From: Promethearchaeota archaeon
Lineage (GTDB): Archaea; Asgardarchaeota; Lokiarchaeia; Sigyniarchaeales; Promethearchaeaceae
Length of the DNA: 32,000 bases
NCBI GenBank assembly: GCA_016933055.1
Contig: JAFGBS010000002.1
Location: 167,905 to 199,904, forward strand
Direction: 5' to 3'
The position numbers were made by a program, and so were the translations under genes. Positions 22,921-32,000 of the stretch are shown piece after piece. Under the pieces are notes generated by a model. The model did no database searches. It was not told the origin of the DNA and saw nothing but the letters and a program-made list of their open reading frames with translations. Each line of letters starts with the position of its first letter. Positions within the stretch are counted from its first letter, which is position 1.

Positions 22921-22947
22921 ATAAGTATTTGTACTACAAATGCTTAT
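22921..22947. promoter_or_regulatory. Inverted repeat upstream of the antitoxin (putative autoregulatory operator)
   Basis: ATAAGTATTTGTA-C-TACAAATGCTTAT: 13-bp arms with one mismatch, ending 19 nt before the ATG. Confidence 0.55.
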
Positions 22948-22966
22948 ATTTGTATTAAGGATCATT

Positions 22967-23269
22967 ATGGCAACAGTGCAAGTACGAATTGATGATGAAG
23001 AAAACAAAGATTTAGATGAGTTAGCAAAAAAATTAGAAATCACCAAATCAGAATTATTACGAAAAATCATCAAACGAGGGAAAAAAGGATTGCTTTTTGA
23101 TGTGTATTTCGAAAAACTTACTAAAAAAGAAATTAGTGTGAGTCGTGCAGCAATAGAAGCGGATTTATCCATCCCCGAATTCATGGAAATGGCAAGAAAA
23201 CGTGGGTATACCTATTTCCAATACGAACCTGAAGAGTTAGACAGGGACTTAGACGCACTTGAAGAGTAG
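22967..23269 (+). CDS. UPF0175-family antitoxin with N-terminal ribbon-helix-helix
   Basis: MATVQVRIDD...KSELLRKII (RHH); EISVSRAAIEADLSIPEFME...YEPEELDRDL. Confidence 0.8.
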   Translation: MATVQVRIDDEENKDLDELAKKLEITKSELLRKIIKRGKKGLLFDVYFEKLTKKEISVSRAAIEADLSIPEFMEMARKRGYTYFQYEPEELDRDLDALEE

Positions 23270-23277
23270 ATATAATT

Positions 23278-23826
23278 ATGAATAACCCTTCCTCAGATCT
23301 TGATTCCGAACCAAAAACTCATTTACAACGATATTTCTTTGATTCTTCCGGTATTTTTGCCTTAATTGATTGCGGCTACTTTCATCGATTCTGTGAAATT
23401 ATTACGAATATTTGTATTACTCCTCAAATTTTTACGGAACTAACGCAAAAAAAAAACTTGGCGAAAAAAATAATATCCGAAAGTTTAACTGCTGGAAAAA
23501 TTACGCTTGTCAAATATAAATCTGGAGAAAAAGAAAAATGGGACAACTATTATGCATTGGGCTTGCACACGGGAGAGATTTCGATACTTCTCACTGCACA
23601 TAAAAAATTTGATATTGTGGTATTCGACGAGGTTGTAGCACGTTCGGTAGCCAGAGCTGAAGGATTTCGACTATCAGGATTACTCGGGCTTGTATTGAAT
23701 TTCAAAAAAACCGGGAAAATGCCCAAAAAAGAAGCACTCTCTTTCTTAAGCGCCATAAACCAAACGAACTTCCGGATGAGCTCTAGTCTCTACGAATCTA
23801 TGCTGCGAAGATTATCTGAAGAATAA
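23278..23826 (+). CDS. PIN-domain toxin (DUF3368/VapC-like)
   Basis: FFDSSGIF, GEISIL, VFDE..AR..A...G...GLLGLV. Confidence 0.8.
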   Translation: MNNPSSDLDSEPKTHLQRYFFDSSGIFALIDCGYFHRFCEIITNICITPQIFTELTQKKNLAKKIISESLTAGKITLVKYKSGEKEKWDNYYALGLHTGEISILLTAHKKFDIVVFDEVVARSVARAEGFRLSGLLGLVLNFKKTGKMPKKEALSFLSAINQTNFRMSSSLYESMLRRLSEE

Positions 23827-23844
23827 AGAAAGTCGGAAGAAGGA

Positions 23845-24000
23845 GGGTAGACTGAACGTTTGTTTCTTTAAGTAAGTTTTGTATCACCGGTAATCACCCG
23901 TTGTCTGGTTTTTGCTATCCATCTCACACCTACGATACTTCCATCCTAGTCGTATCCACGAATTTCGGTTGTAATTGCGTAGATACGCGTGCCCCACCTG
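23845..24000 (-). repeat. Copy R6 of the 23S 3'-trailer repeat (may extend to about 24160)
   Basis: GGGTAGACTGAACGTTT 23845-23861, CATCTCAC 23920-23927, ACTTCC..TAGTC, GCGTGCCCCA 23987-23996, in the same order as 31261-31390. Confidence 0.75.
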
Positions 24001-24227
24001 ATATTGGTACTTGTATGCTATTTCCTAAAGGATATTAGCACCCCAATAGATGAATACGCTGTGTGCTTTTCTCTCATCCTCACGAATGATTGAAAGGTGC
24101 TTACAGTTTGGTTGTTTAACTTTGGTTGTGTTGTTTTAGGATGGTTGAACACTCACAGAAATGGAAAATTAACCACATTTATTTTGCTGCTTGAAATATT
24201 ATTATTAGGAGAAATCAGTGATTCTAC

Positions 24228-26381
24228 ATGAAATATAGTGTTAGGAAAGAGAAGAAATTTTTTATAATTATTATTTTATGGATGTGCTTTTCTCCCTTTC
24301 TCTGTTATGATAAAGTAATGTTTCCTTCTAGTAGCTCCAGATATGATATCCCGAAAACAAGTCAAGTGTACGATAATACTTCCTGCTTCATATACAGCAC
24401 TTTTATTGGAGGTTCGGAGTTAGAAATTGGAAGTGGAATAGCAATTGATCTCCAAGGAGCTTCCTATATAACTGGGGAAACAGAATCGAATGATTTCCTA
24501 ACTTATTCTGCTTTGGATGACACCTTTAATGGAAGTTCTGATGGTTTTATAACAAAATTGAACCCTGAAGGTACGATTAATTACAGTACATTTATTGGCG
24601 GAAACAACCAGGATGGAGGTACAGATATTTTGATTGATGAATCTGGTTATTGTTTTATAGCTGGAACGACGAAATCTGAAGATTTTCCCATTTTGAATGC
24701 TTTTGATTCCTCATTAGGAGCAGCATGGGAAGGAATTTCTGATGGATTCCTCACAAAATTAAATCCGGATGGATCACTTAATTTCAGTAACTATCTAGGA
24801 GGAACATCAGATGAATTAGATCTTCATATCGCCGTAGATGATTCAGGTGCTTGTTTCATTACAGGGATTACCCATTCTTTGAATTTCCCTTTACAAAATG
24901 CTTATGATGAGATTCTTGAAAATCGTGAAGTGTTTGTAATGAAGTTTAATCCAGATGGATCAATAAATTTCAGCACCTATTTAGGAGGAAATCATCATGA
25001 GGACGCTTATGGAATTGTTGCTGATTCTAATGGAGGATGTTATGTCACTGGAAGAACTTTCTCTGATGATTTTCCGACGTTGAATGAAATAGATGATGAG
25101 CAGGATGGAGTGACTGATGCATTTCTTGCAAGATTTAATCAAAATGGCTCAATGATTTTTTGCACCTTAATAGGAGGTGGATCCGAAGATGAGGCTAATG
25201 GAGTTGCATTGGATAATATTGGTAATTGCTACATTATGGGGGATACGGATTCTACTAATTTCCCTTTACAAAATCCGATTGACCATTCTTTAAGCGGGGA
25301 AAGGGATTGTTTCATATCCAAATTTGGACCGTATGGGGATTTACTCTATAGTACATACTGGGGTGGGGATTCACATGAATATGGAACGGAAATATTCGTT
25401 GATAGTAATAATTCATATTATATAACGGGACGATCCTCTTCAAATGATTTTCCCGAGCAATTTGGATTTAGTAGGGAGGAAGACAGTGAGTCTCGATTCT
25501 TTGTCACTAAGTTCAATTCTGATGATACTCTTAATTATAGTTACAAATTTGGAGGGTCTTCATCTGAAGAGCCATGTGATATAAAAATTTATAATAACGG
25601 AGTATGTTACATTGGTGGATTTACCTCTTCAATTGATTTTCCTTTAAAAAATGCCTTTGATACTTCGAATGTTTATTACGAAGCGTTTTTATGTGAAATA
25701 TATGCACCTTCAGGGGATGAAGACGGAGATGGGATACCCAATTATTGGGAGTATCAAAAAGGAATGAATTTATCCTATGCTCTTGATGCTTCTTATGATT
25801 TTGATCGAGATGGTTTGACAAATCTTCAAGAATACCTTTCAGGAACTGATCCTTATGATGATGATACGGATAATGATGGTATAAATGACTTAAATGACCA
25901 TTATCCCAACTCTTTTATGCGACCTGTGGGATGGATTATTATAATTTCATCGATTAGTGTCGTAGGGTTATCAATTAGTATTGTCTTGATCAAACCACTC
26001 CATAAATTTCGTCAATATAAAGTTAGGAAATCCTTGGAGGCTATTCAATTGGAAATGGATGACCTTGATTATGATAGCGCAGAAAAAAAAATTGAAGAAA
26101 CCCTCCCAAAGATTTCAGAATGTGGCAATAAAGACTTGTACTCCAAAGCAAAGACTATGAAAAAATCTTGTGAATATAATCAAATGTTTCTATCGAAATT
26201 GAATGACCACAGAAAGTGGATCGATGAAAGAAATTTCCAGAGTGCACATGAGAATTTAGTCCACCTTTTAAAGCAAATTCATCAACCTGAATATGTTGAG
26301 ATTGTTGACAAAAAAATCGAATCTGAAATCACCGACCTTTTGAAAATGGTTTCAGAAAAATTAGAAAATGAAGAGAAATGA
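24228..26381 (+). CDS. SBBP-type seven-repeat beta-propeller surface protein with DxDxDG Ca-binding repeats, TM helix and cytoplasmic tail
   Basis: Seven YSTFIGG-like units; DEDGDGIPNYWE, DFDRDGLT, DTDNDGIND; N-terminal signal and TM WIIIISSISVVGLSISIVLI. Confidence 0.85.
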   Translation: MKYSVRKEKKFFIIIILWMCFSPFLCYDKVMFPSSSSRYDIPKTSQVYDNTSCFIYSTFIGGSELEIGSGIAIDLQGASYITGETESNDFLTYSALDDTFNGSSDGFITKLNPEGTINYSTFIGGNNQDGGTDILIDESGYCFIAGTTKSEDFPILNAFDSSLGAAWEGISDGFLTKLNPDGSLNFSNYLGGTSDELDLHIAVDDSGACFITGITHSLNFPLQNAYDEILENREVFVMKFNPDGSINFSTYLGGNHHEDAYGIVADSNGGCYVTGRTFSDDFPTLNEIDDEQDGVTDAFLARFNQNGSMIFCTLIGGGSEDEANGVALDNIGNCYIMGDTDSTNFPLQNPIDHSLSGERDCFISKFGPYGDLLYSTYWGGDSHEYGTEIFVDSNNSYYITGRSSSNDFPEQFGFSREEDSESRFFVTKFNSDDTLNYSYKFGGSSSEEPCDIKIYNNGVCYIGGFTSSIDFPLKNAFDTSNVYYEAFLCEIYAPSGDEDGDGIPNYWEYQKGMNLSYALDASYDFDRDGLTNLQEYLSGTDPYDDDTDNDGINDLNDHYPNSFMRPVGWIIIISSISVVGLSISIVLIKPLHKFRQYKVRKSLEAIQLEMDDLDYDSAEKKIEETLPKISECGNKDLYSKAKTMKKSCEYNQMFLSKLNDHRKWIDERNFQSAHENLVHLLKQIHQPEYVEIVDKKIESEITDLLKMVSEKLENEEK

Positions 26382-26385
26382 ATTA

Positions 26386-26663
26386 GGGAAGTAAATTGAA
26401 CATTTAGTTAGAGACGCCTCACATAAGATACTCCCAATCGGCTGATTGTAGTATACTGCGTGCCCCATCCTGCTATTTGGTAGTAAATGATTTGATATCG
26501 CATCCCATACGATGAAATACTTCATTTATGTTGTTGTATATGCGTTCTTTTTGCTTTTTGGATATACTGCTTTTCTGTCTTGCCGCAACTATGTCACAGC
26601 AAAACTATCGAAACGCACAGCGAACACAGATCAGACCGTGACCACTCAAAGCATGAACCCAAA
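26386..26663 (-). repeat. Copy R5 of the 23S 3'-trailer repeat (near full length)
   Basis: GTAAATTGAACATTT, GCGTGCCCCA 26458-26467, GATATCGCATCCC; 26617-26661 matches 31542-31585 at 41 of 45 columns. Confidence 0.85.
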
Positions 26664-26954
26664 TTATAATTTTAAGTTACGGCTACCATGTATTATTATT
26701 TTGATGTAAATTTTATCTTCTTGTTCTACATATTGGTAAATTAACCTGTAGGACTGAATAATAATTTCTCGATCTTCTTCATTCGTAGATTCGGGAACCT
26801 TTCTACCCATTTTCGGAAATCGTTCGAGATTTAAAACTGAATCAAAGACTTTTTCAAAAAAATTCGATGCATATTGGGATGAAGCATTTGATAGATATGC
26901 CAAAATTTGATCGAAGTCAAACTCTGCATCCTTTGTCCATTCTATGGAAACCAT
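26664..26954 (-). CDS. RelE/ParE-family toxin
   Basis: IEWTKDAEFDFDQI...LERFPKMGRKVPE...REIIIQSYRLIYQ...IIHGSR. Confidence 0.88.
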   Translation of the reverse strand: MVSIEWTKDAEFDFDQILAYLSNASSQYASNFFEKVFDSVLNLERFPKMGRKVPESTNEEDREIIIQSYRLIYQYVEQEDKIYIKIIIHGSRNLKL

Positions 26955-27148
26955 TTCTTCTTTAACTTCTCCATAACTTCATCATGTGGAATAGTTTCTC
27001 CGGAAGAAATTTGGTGTTCGGCTTTTTGTAATTTCTGTATCACAAATAAATGGTATTGAATATCATCCAACGTAACATCATTAGGAAGATTTTCAATTAA
27101 ATCAATAGCTATTTTTTTGGAGTTTACTGAATTACTCATTTCGTTCAT
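26942..27148 (-). CDS. Antitoxin partner of the RelE/ParE toxin
   Basis: LIENLPNDVTLDDIQYHLFV...GETIPHDEVMEKLKKKW; overlaps the toxin start by 13 nt. Confidence 0.8.
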   Translation of the reverse strand: MNEMSNSVNSKKIAIDLIENLPNDVTLDDIQYHLFVIQKLQKAEHQISSGETIPHDEVMEKLKKKWFP

Positions 27149-27241
27149 ACATATATAATGAAAATCCCCATATTAACTACTATCTTTTTTACAATTTAAT
27201 TAAATCAGAATTTTGAGTAATTCAAACGAATGTAAAAAGAG

Positions 27242-27260
27242 GAGAGTAGACTGAACGTTT
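27242..27260 (-). repeat. Copy R4 of the trailer repeat (terminal motif only)
   Basis: GAGAGTAGACTGAACGTTT directly abutting a minus-strand stop at 27262-27264. Confidence 0.7.
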
Positions 27261-27261
27261 T

Positions 27262-28176
27262 CTAATTAGAAACAGCTCCGAAATTTGGTCGTTTAACCAT
27301 ATCAATTATGAAGGAAATCACCACTAACACACCTGCAGTAAAAGTGGTCAATATACTCGTTATAAGTAAAAAATCATTAGGAAAACTATGCTTTAAGAAG
27401 TTGAGAATTGGATACGAAGGTGTATAGATAATCTCCGCTGAAAATATTATAAAGGCTGTTAACGAACAACCCAATATCAGTACGGAAAAGAAAATCGAGT
27501 TCCTACTCGAAATCGTGGTTTAAATAAATCTGAAAAAAAATGAACAACTGTAAGTCCAGCAAAAAGGAACGCACAGAAAAATAGTAGCAAAATGATAATC
27601 TCATATGTGTGCAACCCAGGAAGATCAGGATCGATCGTCTGAAGAAGAAGAGTAGAACCTGAAGCTCCATAATGCTTAACCGCACGAACACAACTAGTTG
27701 AACGATATAAGACTGACTTCGTTCTTGGTGGGGAACTGCATTTTATTCCATTTCTAGGAATGTCTGTCGGGTAATTGTCAAAATTCATGATAGTATCATC
27801 TTTATTTTTTTATAGACATCGAGTAGTAAAAATACTACTTTGAAATATTATACCGATTGATCATCTTCGTATTCCATTTGATCAAGGAGAGTATGTGATA
27901 ATCATGAGTACCAATGTAGGGATATCTTGTTCCCACTGTATAAGTGCCTTAAGAATCCCCCCAAATATTGCAGAAGTACCCCACAACAGGGTAAGTTAAA
28001 CTCCATTCATATTTCATATAGTTGTTTAATCCAGATGAATTAGGGAGAAGATCTCCTTTTGGACCTTGGTTAAGATAGTCATACTGTAGCTCTAAGGCTT
28101 GACCACAGACCATTTTTAAGCTGAATACCAGGGCTAGAACACATGGATATATGGTAGGGGTTTTTTTCATCCGCAT
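27262..28176 (-). pseudogene. Fragmented secreted/membrane protein gene
   Basis: Signal-peptide ORF 28176-27949 continues in frame past TAA (GTYTVGTRYPY...), stops again, then hydrophobic ORFs 27788-27477 and 27474-27262 follow in shifted frames. Confidence 0.5.
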
Positions 28177-28478
28177 AATCCGAATCTTACCAAATGAAAG
28201 GATACCTAAGTATAAAAAGAATATACATCAATTTCTATGTTAATCATGGGATCCTTTGTAGGATTCCACCCTTTTTCTGGATTGGTAGGTTTCTCGACTC
28301 ATGAATGATGATTATTGAATCGACCCGTGATGATTATGTATACATCTATGGATCTCTATAGATCACAAATGATTGATGATTGATGATATTTTTACAATTA
28401 TCGATGCATACCGAGTAGATTAGCAACTACTCGCTTAGTGGATAAGATCGGTAAAAGGAAGTAATATAATAAAAGAAA

Positions 28479-28583
28479 GGGGGGGTAGGCTGAACATTTC
28501 GTTCAAGTTATCTTTTCTTTCGATCTCACAATCATTGGATGTAAGTAGAAAAGGGGGAGTACTGCATCCCCATCCTGCTATTT
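28479..28583 (-). repeat. Copy R3 of the 23S 3'-trailer repeat
   Basis: GGGGGGGTAGGCTGAACATTT 28479-28499, GATCTCAC, and TACTGCATCCCCATCCTGCTATTT similar to 26454-26478. Confidence 0.8.
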
Positions 28584-28587
28584 TTTA

Positions 28588-29070
28588 TTATACTAAAGGC
28601 TGATACTTCCATCCTTTCTTTTTCCCAATCAAATACAATATATACATTGCAAGCACAGAAAATACGAATAGGGAAATAATGTGAAACCATAGTCTTGATT
28701 TTCCCATAATAATATCTGAAAATGGTGCCCAAGATGCATTTATTAGAGTATACGAAAATATTAGCCAGAATATAAGACCACCTATATAGCCGAAACAACC
28801 GATGAAAACGATTTTATAAATTAACTGAGGATTTTTCACTTTTCTGATAAGAACAACTAAAATAATCATTAAAGGGTAAAAAAGCATGAATCCTATGGTA
28901 AATCCGAGATTGTTGATCTCGTAATAATATAAGATCCAAAGAAACAGACTATTAGCGATGATTCCGCCGATATTTACCCATAACCAATTTTCTTTAAACT
29001 TTTGAAAGAATTTTTTAAAAGAATTAACTTTATCCGAATGATTGTCTGTTGACTCTGTCACGAGTAACAC
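28588..29070 (-). CDS. Four-TM hypothetical membrane protein
   Basis: 160 aa, four hydrophobic helices, basic C-terminal tail; the stop lies about 5 nt from repeat R3. Confidence 0.75.
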   Translation of the reverse strand: MLLVTESTDNHSDKVNSFKKFFQKFKENWLWVNIGGIIANSLFLWILYYYEINNLGFTIGFMLFYPLMIILVVLIRKVKNPQLIYKIVFIGCFGYIGGLIFWLIFSYTLINASWAPFSDIIMGKSRLWFHIISLFVFSVLAMYILYLIGKKKGWKYQPLV

Positions 29071-29291
29071 TTCTTTTTGACAATTTCCAAAAGCTGCACT
29101 TTATTATTTAAGTGTATGGATTTAACAAATTGTTGAATAAGTATATCTTTTCTTTCCATCTTAACATATCATGATACTTCCATTGGTTATCATCATGTAA
29201 ATAAATGGTAGTTATGCATACCCCAACCTATTGATTGATCATTAATGTGGATATTGGTAGCCAATAAATTATAAACATAAAACAATATATT

Positions 29292-29303
29292 ATGTAATTA
29301 CAT
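29292..29303. promoter_or_regulatory. Perfect 12-bp palindrome upstream of the MazE-like gene (putative operator)
   Basis: ATGTAATTACAT ending 9 nt before ATG 29313. Confidence 0.5.
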
Positions 29304-29312
29304 TGTAATTAT

Positions 29313-29570
29313 ATGGAACCGGTGAAAATTAAACTCATAAAAATAGGAAATTCCCGCGGCATCCGTATCCCGAAATATATCTTGGAGCTTTTAAATCTAG
29401 ATGAAGAAATTGAATTAATTATAGATGAAGAGGCAAAAGAATTGATTATTCGGTCTAATAAACCACCTAGAATTCATTGGGATAAAGCATTTAGACAAAT
29501 GCATGAAAATCAGGACGATACCTTACTAATAGATGATGCATTAGACATCGATTTTGACGATGATTGGTGA
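29313..29570 (+). CDS. mazE: AbrB/MazE/SpoVT-family antitoxin
   Basis: KLIKIGNSRGIRIPKYILE and acidic C-terminus; overlaps the toxin start. Confidence 0.88.
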   Translation: MEPVKIKLIKIGNSRGIRIPKYILELLNLDEEIELIIDEEAKELIIRSNKPPRIHWDKAFRQMHENQDDTLLIDDALDIDFDDDW

Positions 29571-29902
29571 TACCATTGGTAACGATCAATCAATATTCGA
29601 TTTATTTAGTGAATTTAGATCCCACAATAGGACATGAAATACAGAAAATTCGCCCTTGTTTGATAATTTCCCCAGATGAAATGAATCACAATATTGCTAC
29701 TGTGATAATTGCACCGTTAACTTCGAAATCTCGGGATTATCCGACTCGAGTCGAAATACAACTCCAAGGAAAAAATGGTTGGATTGTTTTAGATCAGATT
29801 CGGACCATTGATAAAAGTCGAATCATCCGAAAAGTGGGAAAAATTTCACCACAACAAATTCAGAAGGTAAAATCAGTCATTAAAGAGATGCTAGTGGATT
29901 AG
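29564..29902 (+). CDS. mazF: MazF/PemK-family endoribonuclease toxin
   Basis: VNLDPTIGHEIQKIRPCLIIS, APLTS, VLDQIRTIDKSR; the real start may be TTG 29576. Confidence 0.92.
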   Translation: MVIPLVTINQYSIYLVNLDPTIGHEIQKIRPCLIISPDEMNHNIATVIIAPLTSKSRDYPTRVEIQLQGKNGWIVLDQIRTIDKSRIIRKVGKISPQQIQKVKSVIKEMLVD

Positions 29903-29909
29903 AAGTAAT

Positions 29910-30033
29910 GGGGTAGGCTGAACGTTTGTATTGGTATTTTGATTCGATTCGATATCGTTATCTGTTTGCTCATCTCACGAATAGTCCACTTCCGGGTAGT
30001 CTTCTATTGTTGATGTAGACGTATTTTGGTGTT
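29910..30033 (-). repeat. Copy R2 of the 23S 3'-trailer repeat (closest to the resident copy)
   Basis: Aligns to 31261-31379 with 9 substitutions (all transitions) and 2 indels by manual count; a 37-nt block is identical (29968-30004 = 31314-31350). Confidence 0.95.
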
Positions 30034-31147
30034 TGACTCTTGTGGTTACCCATAACAATAGAGAGATTATCGCGATTGATAAAGACAAACTAATTCCTAA
30101 AAATCCTGATATTGAACGATCGGAAGAAAATGTCTGTCCAAATTGTACATCGATTTCAAATCCGTTAAAATCCTTGAAATCTTCAATATTAATTAAATAG
30201 GTATGAAAAAACCATCTTTCTTGGTTATTATATTCATCATAATAAGGTAAGTAATAATCCATATCGCCTGACATATCCTCTATAACACTATGCCAAACAA
30301 ATTCTGAGATTTGGTTTTCATCTGGCGGACAGAATTTTCTCTGAAAGGTTGAATATCCAGTAGAGCTATGATCGTTAACTCTTGTCCATAGAGAGACATA
30401 AAACATCATTTTCATATAATAAAGAGCAGAGCAATTTATGGGAGCTTCTCTGATAGTGGTAGTTATAATTTTTCCAAATGCAAAATAATCCGAAATATTT
30501 GGCCAAAACACTTCTGTTCTCAATTGATGATAAGTTTTGTTTTCTCCATCGGAAGTCTCAATATTAATCCCAAACTCGAAATGATTTGGATGGGTAGTTA
30601 GTATTGGAACTTTGCCGAATCTGGAAGGTAGTTTCGCATGTTCACCATAACTTATTGATTCCCAAATGGAGCAGTCAATGTGCTGAATTTTAACCTCTGC
30701 ATAATCAATTTGATTAGATAAATTATAAACTAAGAATTCTTCAAAAAATACCCGTGTTCCGTTGGGTATTGAAATATTCACGTATCTCACGTAAGTATTT
30801 ATGGTATTATTGACCAACCAGGTAAATTGCACTCCCAAGGGTGTGGAAGTACTATTTAATCCATAATCTTTATGATGCACTTCCAATGCATAGCGGATTT
30901 CATAAAAAATTCCTGTAACATTTGTTATTTCGATAGCTGTAACATTAAGTATCGCTCCGGTATACGAAGAATACATACCCCATCGTGTTTCATTGAAAAT
31001 AATCCGTTGAATATTTTCATCGATTGCACTAATGTTAATTAAAGAATTTAGCCGATTTTCAGAATTTTCAATAGCAACAGCAGAAAACGTCGAAAATAAG
31101 ATTATAATCAGCGTACTCCACATAAACCATTTTTGTGTTCTTTTCAC
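29975..31147 (-). CDS. Secreted/surface protein with N-terminal signal and C-terminal TM anchor; last ~20 codons encoded by repeat R2
   Basis: Signal MKRTQKWFMWSTLIIILFSTFSAVA, Asn-rich body, TM FLGISLSLSIAIISLLLWV, tail HQNTSTSTIEDYPEVDYS inside R2. Confidence 0.85.
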   Translation of the reverse strand: MKRTQKWFMWSTLIIILFSTFSAVAIENSENRLNSLINISAIDENIQRIIFNETRWGMYSSYTGAILNVTAIEITNVTGIFYEIRYALEVHHKDYGLNSTSTPLGVQFTWLVNNTINTYVRYVNISIPNGTRVFFEEFLVYNLSNQIDYAEVKIQHIDCSIWESISYGEHAKLPSRFGKVPILTTHPNHFEFGINIETSDGENKTYHQLRTEVFWPNISDYFAFGKIITTTIREAPINCSALYYMKMMFYVSLWTRVNDHSSTGYSTFQRKFCPPDENQISEFVWHSVIEDMSGDMDYYLPYYDEYNNQERWFFHTYLINIEDFKDFNGFEIDVQFGQTFSSDRSISGFLGISLSLSIAIISLLLWVTTRVKHQNTSTSTIEDYPEVDYS

Positions 31148-31256
31148 AAGTATTCAACCTACACAAAGATTGGTTTATCTTTTGGCTAATCCCATATTTA
31201 AATAGATACATAGCGCTATTGCCTTAGATTATGAGAATGAAAAAAATAGATAAAAA

Positions 31257-31590
31257 GGGGGGGTAGGCTGAACGTTTGATATTGATATTTCGATTCGGTA
31301 TCGTTACCTGCTCGCTCATCTCACGAATAGTCCACTTCCGGGTAGTCTTCCATTGTTGGTGTAGACATGTTTTGGTGTTGGCGTGCCCCATTACCTGTTT
31401 GGTTCTGGTTTGTAGATATGCATCCCGTTGATGCTGCACTTTGCTTGTGTTGGTTCATTCGGTGCATTATGTTCCAGATACCTTGATTCTTGCTATCGTG
31501 CTACGTTGAATGATTTTTCATTCATTGACACATAACAGCAGACAGCGGACACAGATCAGACCGTGCCGCTCAAAGCCTGAACCCATATGC
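31257..31590 (-). other. 23S rRNA 3' trailer (resident copy R1) ending in a C7/T-rich putative terminator
   Basis: Directly follows the 23S 3' end; minus strand ends ...AAACGTTCAGCCTACCCCCCCTTTTTATCTATTTTTTT; no 5S or tRNA recognisable. Confidence 0.75.
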
Positions 31591-31607
31591 CCCCGTTCCA
31601 CTCACAC

Positions 31608-32000
31608 GCTTGAACGGTTGAAAACGGCGGGCTAAATACGTCGGCCGTAGCCTTCGCACGTACACCCCCGTCTCACCTAACGGGTCTTTTACCCGAGTTC
31701 TCGTCACCCACCCGCCCCCATAGTCGCCTATTGAGGCTCGTCATCGGACGCGTCATTTTGAACAGCCATGGTTCCTCATACTCTGGAAAGGGTACTTCTC
31801 CACTTACTGTAAAGCGGATCGGCTCCGCAACGCACCCTGTGATGGGTGAATGGGTGTTTATTTTCGGGGCATATTTCGCGCTTAGATGCTTTCAGCGCTT
31901 ATCATTTGGAGCGTAGCTGCTTGGCTTACCCTGTCGGATAACCAATAGACCAGAGGCTCCCACGCGTTGTTCCTCTCGTACTGCACGCGTGCTGCCCTCA
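31608..32000 (-). rRNA. rrl: 23S rRNA, 3'-terminal ~390 nt (continues beyond window; 3' end approximate)
   Basis: Sarcin-ricin loop AGUACGAGAGGAAC (31982-31969), GAUAAGCGCUGAAAGCAUCUAAGCGCGAAA, archaeal-type ...UUUAGCCCGCCG terminus. Confidence 0.97.

Follow-up and report, generated by a model that had tools for sequence, protein, structure and literature searches.

An accessory protein gene of a Promethearchaeota archaeon is fused in frame to a displaced copy of the 23S rRNA trailer

The last 18 codons and the stop codon of a 390-aa accessory gene in a Promethearchaeota archaeon lie inside a displaced copy of the trailer that follows the 23S rRNA gene. The gene is found in the window, by which we mean the whole 32,000-nt stretch of DNA that was analyzed (coordinates given without a contig name refer to it); the window is the terminal part of contig C28 of a 3.76-Mb genome with 35% G+C. 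The sequence that became the tail was non-coding, the fused gene is integrated beside the rRNA gene, and the points at which trailer copies in this region are cut vary. We consider it probable that the stop codon of the gene was lost, and its frame fused to an older trailer copy, through homology-facilitated illegitimate recombination at the 23S gene.

The 3' end of the archaeal 23S rRNA gene occupies the last 403 bases of the window (31598-32000, minus strand, model positions 2732-2987), and contig C6 opens with the remainder of the gene (C6:1-2717). Behind the gene lies the resident, or master, trailer R1 (31257-31597, minus strand), which comprises the 341 bases between the 23S 3' end and a set of oligo-T runs. 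Read in the sense of the rRNA, R1 consists of block C (31542-31590), the middle blocks, block B (31380-31411), segment V (31279-31379) and end motif A (31257-31278), followed by the T-runs. A spacer on the minus strand (31148-31256) extends from the end of the master trailer, with its T5 and T7 runs, to the start of the 390-aa gene, and contains an A/T-rich TATA-like stretch that may be the promoter of that gene.

The 390-aa gene (29975-31147, minus strand) encodes a surface protein that is anchored in the membrane and probably glycosylated: an N-terminal signal or anchor helix is followed by an ectodomain that is all-beta and contains 13 N-x-S/T sequons, by a C-terminal membrane helix at about residues 346-372 (348-374 in the AF2 model) and by the borrowed tail. 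The frame was stop-free in none of 20000 shuffles. At its C-terminal end the predicted protein reads LLLWVTTRVKHQNTSTSTIEDYPEVDYS before the stop codon. The residues TTRVK are followed there by the tail, HQNTSTSTIEDYPEVDYS, which is encoded by codons 373-390 and terminated by TGA (29975-30033, minus strand); the R1/R2 alignment and the stop codons of homologues both mark this DNA as trailer-derived. Similarity between R1 and the displaced copy R2 stops at 30033-30036, inside or just past codon K372, and we refer to this limit as the joint. Because the similarity ends there, 18 codons and the stop lie within the repeat, close to the figure of about 20 codons given by an earlier reading of the window that used the sequence only. 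That reading also had the frame run from the membrane anchor straight into R2, as the coordinates of the two features bear out, and had the resident trailer readable in the same frame; R1 does carry such an open reading frame (31321-31467), which ends in HQNMSTPTMEDYPEVDYS and a stop codon.

The AF2 model of the 390-aa protein has a mean pLDDT of 70, and tail residues 374-390 fall below a pLDDT of 50. No Pfam family matched the protein, and its Atlas scores were below 0.9. Two beta-sandwich lobes are seen in the model. Its best Foldseek matches are Vps26/arrestin-type chains, with a probability of about 1.0 but TM scores of only 0.21-0.26 and an rmsd of about 25 Å; a match of this type would hardly be expected of a protein that has a signal helix, sequons and a C-terminal anchor. 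At such TM and rmsd values we make no claim of family membership, and the matches to the model probably reflect a generic beta-sandwich likeness. We take the protein for an ordinary orphan surface protein, and there is no hint so far of a function for the new tail.

R2 (29910-30033, minus strand) is a trailer copy cut on its 23S side, which keeps segment V and end motif A, without blocks B and C. It lies between the 390-aa open reading frame and the stop codon of a MazF gene (29900-29902), 7 nt from the latter; at this end the G-run of R2 is shortened and the T-run is missing. R2 aligns to R1 (31260-31379) with 88% identity over 125 columns (E = 3e-38), and the two differ by 9 substitutions and 2 indels. 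A 37-nt stretch covering EDYPEVDYS and its stop codon is identical in both. Seven of the nine substitutions are G or C in R1 and A or T in R2. At the leader-paired positions of segment V that vary, pairing with the rRNA leader is kept by all four R1 variants but lost in two of the four R2 variants. Since the variants of R1 keep leader pairing and those of R2 partly lose it, and since the substitutions are biased from G/C to A/T, R2 looks like a copy freed from the constraint of rRNA and drifting towards the composition of the genome. No other displaced copy aligns to R1 over a long stretch at high identity, and none lies nearer to R1; R2 is probably the youngest of the displaced copies.

Homologues of the 390-aa protein indicate where its native end lies. 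An exhaustive search of 1.84 billion representative proteins yielded four homologues (P0002-P0005) with 28-37% identity; a word-indexed search of 5.8 billion proteins recovered only the 390-aa protein itself. The family is rare, with any match at all in just 3 of 154 genomes of the order and none in the sister genome. The ectodomain and the membrane helix are common to the four homologues, which end in short basic tails, 0-18 residues past the helix. P0002, the closest, ends in WIKRKSK where the query reads WVTTRVK and then, across the joint, HQN, and in the alignment the P0002 stop codon falls precisely on the joint. Nothing similar to the trailer follows the homologues in their own DNA. The sequence-only reading had proposed this comparison of C-termini and had held that homologues ending in EDYPEVDYS would speak against a borrowed tail; that sequence is absent from all four. 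The conclusion that the tail of the 390-aa protein is non-native is thereby well supported.

The source of the tail has a place in the rRNA transcript. In 13 genomes of other genera, among them members of other families of the order, the 23S genes are followed by a conserved version of the trailer start (GGTTCAGGCTT.GAG). The trailer blocks recur in inverted order ahead of the 23S 5' end (C6:2766-3270), and this copy includes a V-like core. Cofolding of leader and trailer predicts 178 intermolecular pairs with a ΔΔG of -72 kcal/mol, compared with a mean of 55 pairs (maximum 91) and a mean ΔΔG of -12 kcal/mol (minimum -19 kcal/mol) for shuffled trailers. The marks of an archaeal pre-rRNA processing stem, complementary flanks and a long helix, are present here as colinear inverted blocks and as the predicted cofold. 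The codons for TME and for EVDYS with its stop lie inside predicted helices with the leader. Segment V alone folds no better than shuffled sequences, and in R1 worse, which suits one strand of a two-strand helix. The diverged V-like cores, one at 23846 in the window and two in the sister genome, carry 1- and 2-nt indels and stop codons in the frame of the tail.

Taken together, the position of segment V in a trailer that abuts the 23S gene, the conserved trailer start, the pairing with the leader and the broken frames of the diverged copies lead us to regard segment V as non-coding by origin and its open frame in R1 as accidental. The sequence-only reading had described the tail as made from non-coding rRNA spacer, and the same observations uphold it; the borrowing of the tail from the 23S trailer is a well-supported reading of the sequences. 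The 23S flanks as a whole (G000:C6:2718-3290 and window 31250-31597) consist of inverted blocks of the same types, in a leader of about 570 nt and a trailer of 340 nt. The predicted 178-pair helix is far longer than the usual archaeal processing stem, and motif A forms its base (17 bp), after which come the T-runs.

At least five displaced trailer copies, all in the same orientation, separate blocks of accessory genes in the window. All of them keep the terminator-side end (GGTAGRCTGAACRTTT on the plus strand), and on the 23S side four of the five have cut points of their own, which fall in or beside V, B, A or C. In the last 8.2 kb of the window the 16-nt end motif is found five times, where chance would give 0.07 occurrences, and the rest of the 3.76-Mb genome has just one more. 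Moving away from the rRNA gene, the block that follows R2 begins with a MazE/MazF toxin-antitoxin pair (29313-29902, plus strand), convergent with the 390-aa gene, and also holds a 160-aa membrane-protein gene (28588-29070). Directly behind the intact stop codon of the latter lies an older trailer copy with motif A, a short V-like piece and a B-like block (28476-28590, minus strand). Farther out are a copy reduced to end motif A (27235-27260, minus strand), a copy with block C (26617-26664, 90% identical to R1), block B and a V-like core (26390-26664, minus strand), and a diverged, nearly whole copy with motif A, a V-like core with frame-breaking indels, block B and the middle block (23840-24227, minus strand). 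On its 23S side the copy at 26390-26664 extends as far as block C, 10 nt from the 23S end, where it abuts the stop codon of a ParE gene, and its A end is trimmed by the end of an SBBP gene. The blocks between the copies thus hold, in order, the 390-aa gene, MazEF with the 160-aa membrane protein, an unannotated block, ParDE and a beta-propeller protein.

Several further observations concern the genes of the row. Two genes convergent with trailer copies end tightly at motif A (26381-26400 and 29900-29913), and one of them, encoding the SBBP beta-propeller, trims the motif at 26391. Three toxin-antitoxin pairs lie within 7 kb (22940-29902): RHH/UPF0175 with a DUF3368 PIN-like protein, ParDE and MazEF. 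The 160-aa gene was considered as a second case of a borrowed end, as 13 nt of its last codons match the V-like core, and was rejected: its C-terminus, GKKKGWKYQP, is conserved in six homologues in other contexts. Inspection of the sequences also led us to discard two further ideas, that terminal inverted repeats are present and that the motif is of tRNA-like origin. Further trailer copies lie far from any rRNA gene (G000:C9:33290-33641 and G000:C17:280260-280415), and both adjoin paralogous genes for ICMT-like membrane methyltransferases. On C17 the stop codon of the gene (280256-280258) falls at the start of the trailer similarity, and the copy stops in the middle block; the last four codons of this ICMT-like gene may be trailer-derived as well (9 of 12 nt match).

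A comparable row is found in the sister genome G001, where five co-oriented copies of the end motif lie on one contig (C153:1-6600; at 625, 3889, 4982, 5571 and 6150). The blocks between them, 0.6-3.3 kb in length, contain a DUF3160 protein, a MazE-like/PIN pair and small ORFans, and a Fic/DOC protein is also found in this row. The ParDE block is common to the window and the sister genome (88.6%), and the other sister blocks differ. These differing blocks lie between ParDE and the contig end where the 23S gene is expected; the gene itself is not in the sister assembly. A shared distal block and different blocks towards the 23S end are in keeping with R2 as the youngest copy. On the JGI metagenome contig L171 (760-960), a homologue of the 160-aa protein (157 aa, 72% amino acid identity) directly follows a trailer fragment that ends in the A motif and T-runs, and this fragment comes after an enoyl-CoA hydratase gene. 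At the corresponding place in the window, the MazEF pair lies between the A motif and the conserved upstream region of the 160-aa gene. A complete genome of the same family, G011, has two 23S copies, with no trailer copies within 15 kb behind either. By eye, a 16S-like sequence appears to lie within about 300 nt after one of these 23S genes (G011:C1:2303700-2304400), and protein genes follow the other. A scan of GTDB genomes with the 16-nt motif gave 118 single chance matches in unrelated bacteria, none of them clustered. Metagenome scans gave no match to a 24-mer of segment V and three unrelated matches to a block-C pattern, with no empty site, donor or second context among them.

The arrangement at the joint is unlikely in the extreme to be an assembly artefact, in which a repeat would have caused a chimeric join and the gene would really lie elsewhere or on a circle. 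Such a join might be suspected since unitigs at k=31 break at the 37-mer common to R1 and R2, and since at k=31 the graph alone would look the same for an integrated copy and for a circle together with an empty site. However, contigs from two other studies bridge R1 on both sides (31179-31421 and 31221-31477), joining R1-type halves to the upstream spacer of the gene and running from that spacer into block B. Because the join of spacer and R1 occurs only in the integrated form, these contigs indicate that the integrated arrangement is real. In the run that is the likely source, a k=31 contig (27157-29997) ends inside the common 37-mer, and the 37-mer forms a separate unitig at about twice the depth of its flanks (42 versus 20). 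The sequence-only reading had called for sequence support at the joint. This comes from another assembly, in which the protein is present at 100% identity on a 1369-nt k=31 unitig; the calculated span of that unitig, 29975-31343, would cover the joint, which lies 29 nt beyond the 37-mer. The 9 sites and 2 indels that distinguish R1 from R2 also suffice for longer k-mers or reads to separate them.

How the fusion arose can be reconstructed from the anatomy of the row. In the account that we favor, the native frame of the 390-aa gene would have ended at K372 or a few codons from it. Its stop codon would have been lost at a joint without sign of site specificity, and the frame would have been fused to the middle of the older trailer copy R2, which would from then on have supplied 18 codons, a stop codon and a 3' flank. 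The incoming segment would have consisted of a 23S end, a whole trailer, the spacer and the gene. It would have entered on one side via homology in the conserved 23S gene or the proximal trailer and on the other side by a non-homologous joint inside the resident trailer, and the remaining V-A part of the old trailer would have been pushed outwards. Repeated events of this kind would have left a row of outward-displaced copies with a common terminator end and mostly differing cuts on the 23S side. This history explains why the terminator-side end is fixed and the inner end variable, why the master copy beside the 23S gene is whole, and why the row turns over at its inner end. We infer the one-sided homologous anchor and the dating of the joint to the insertion of the 390-aa gene and, since neither a donor nor an empty-site sequence was found, the order of events as well.

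At the joint the 23S anchor is present, and the R1/R2 alignment has no extended homology across it. Microhomology of at most 2-3 nt (CAA) is possible there, with the donor absent from the comparison. Because the cut points differ and there is neither a hairpin nor an integron core, the inner joint of each block looks non-specific. The sequence-only reading had called R2 the junction of the newest insertion and illegitimate rather than precise. The first description agrees with the unique close match of R2 to R1 and with its place next to the master copy, and the second with the variable 23S-side cuts, the lack of a hairpin and the lack of a recombinase among the open reading frames scanned at the locus. 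Its further claim that the incoming gene was cut near its 3' end may come down to loss of the stop codon only. Some features fit the favored account less easily. The common end motif of 16-22 nt also resembles the core site of a recombinase, and the occurrence of joints at least four times inside a 340-nt trailer needs explaining, perhaps by closeness to the homologous anchor. Mobile units bounded by A and common descent are equally good explanations of the 157-aa homologue that follows an A motif on L171.

This last point bears on an alternative that we regard as unlikely, a mobile cassette made of spacer, gene and the V-A segment. Such a cassette would move whole, through motif A and an unknown recombinase acting in trans or through the 124 nt of V-A homology, and the joint of gene and V would be older than the insertion and cassette-borne, like integron open reading frames that end inside attC. 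Motif A does bound every block, far more densely than chance allows, the sister row has five copies with other gene content, and the 157-aa homologue on L171 has a different neighborhood; blocks of 0.6-3.4 kb in which toxin-antitoxin pairs are common, and the reported enrichment of integrons and CALINs in Asgard MAGs (PMC9668308), point the same way. In bacteria, DNA is known to loop out as circles and to re-enter by homology (PMC10770853). Yet no second copy or circle was seen in the assemblies, the 154 genomes of the order or the metagenome scan, the locus has no integrase, the motif has neither an attC-like hairpin nor GTTRRRY/RYYYAAC cores, and the base of the pre-23S helix together with the terminator is a plain reason for the conservation of motif A.

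Still less probable is a later deletion, in a gene that came in with its stop codon intact and with a longer trailer copy, or a whole one, behind it; the deletion would have taken the stop and blocks C and B and fused the frame to V. At 26664 the ParE stop does abut a nearly whole trailer copy, and direct repeats and A/T-rich DNA favor deletions, but two events are needed where one suffices, no intermediate was seen, and the outcome for the tail is the same, with only the timing changed. The reverse direction, with V first the 3' end of a protein gene and only afterwards part of the rRNA trailer, is largely refuted, and we give it almost no credence. It would account for a frame that is open in both copies and for the identity of the 37-nt stretch, although an identical run of that length is expected, by our estimate, at 9 differences per 120 nt. 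Against it stand the homologues, which are without the tail, the pairing of V with the leader, the V-like core in the inverted copy upstream of 23S, and the broken frame of the older V-like copies. The choice among insertion, cassette and deletion leaves the origin of the tail unchanged.

The row resembles integrons and CALINs, including Asgard ones (PMC9668308), in being a series of mostly one- or two-gene blocks with a repeated site between them, in its toxin-antitoxin blocks and in turnover at one end, and some integron open reading frames likewise end inside the site. It differs in having no IntI, no attC hairpin and no R'/R'' cores, and in that its repeat is a copy of one strand of an rRNA processing stem. 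A search for tyrosine recombinases found no integron integrase beside the row: the four PF00589 hits in the whole genome are on C30, C33, C8 and the far end of C17, with none on C28 or in the first 16 kb of C6. Pfam scans of most of the larger open reading frames (the window from 10 kb on and the first 14 kb of C6) revealed no recombinase of any kind, and Rfam found no family in the window beyond rRNA. Eight folds, of four repeat copies on both strands, had z scores of -1.0 to +2.2 relative to shuffles, giving no attC hairpin, and the motif reads GCTGAAC/GTTCAGC, which fits neither the R'' core RYYYAAC nor the R' core GTTRRRY.

Gene capture by SSV-type integrases in archaea is a form of tandem accretion at tRNA-type 3' ends. 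The tandem islands at tRNA and tmRNA genes, such as the tycheposons of Prochlorococcus (bioRxiv 10.1101/2020.12.28.424599), are like the row described here in that a stable RNA gene is the landing site, newcomers displace older blocks outwards, a partial copy of the 3' part of the RNA gene follows each older block, and degraded remnants are scattered about. Direct repeats of the 3' part of a target with the whole gene at one end, the mark of tandem islands, are found in the row, but they derive from an rRNA trailer and not a tRNA. An integrase and a fixed crossover are not found: the 8-kb row has no integrase or fragment of one, and the 23S-side ends vary. The row differs from these islands also in that the target is the transcribed spacer behind 23S, the cuts are variable, and one copy is read as coding.

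The mechanism that we favor has a counterpart in bacteria. Homology-facilitated illegitimate recombination was reportedly demonstrated by experiment in transformable bacteria (de Vries and Wackernagel in 2002, and Prudhomme et al. in 2002). The likeness lies in one conserved anchor, a nearby non-homologous joint and the loss of some recipient DNA; the difference is between bacterial experiments and an archaeal case deduced from anatomy alone, with the donor absent. C-terminal extension through loss of a stop codon and read-through into non-coding DNA is a general phenomenon. The fusion described here is an event of that type and shares with it a short disordered, newly coding tail on an otherwise conserved protein. 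What is unusual is that both the source and the non-coding role that it plays are identifiable: the codons come from a displaced copy of an rRNA spacer, and the master copy lies 1.3 kb away.

A broader possibility, which we put forward as doubtful, is that the 23S trailer serves as the landing pad of an Asgard gene-capture system without integrase or attC. Trailer copies would then routinely supply 3' ends (a terminator, a stop codon and, here, a tail), an unknown enzyme would act at motif A, and the borrowed end could tie the mRNA to pre-rRNA processing. The borrowed 3' end still matches the pre-23S leader, with 30 predicted pairs.

The 390-aa gene is a traceable, dated case of coding sequence born from rRNA spacer, with the source, R1, and the product, R2, 1.3 kb apart on one contig. 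The protein family marks the native end, and the source has a known non-coding role as a strand of the processing stem. The joint also bears on how rows of accessory genes anchored to rRNA genes are assembled. Its position is not a fixed one, and this speaks for blocks that are joined imprecisely on their inner side, with only the terminator-side end constant.
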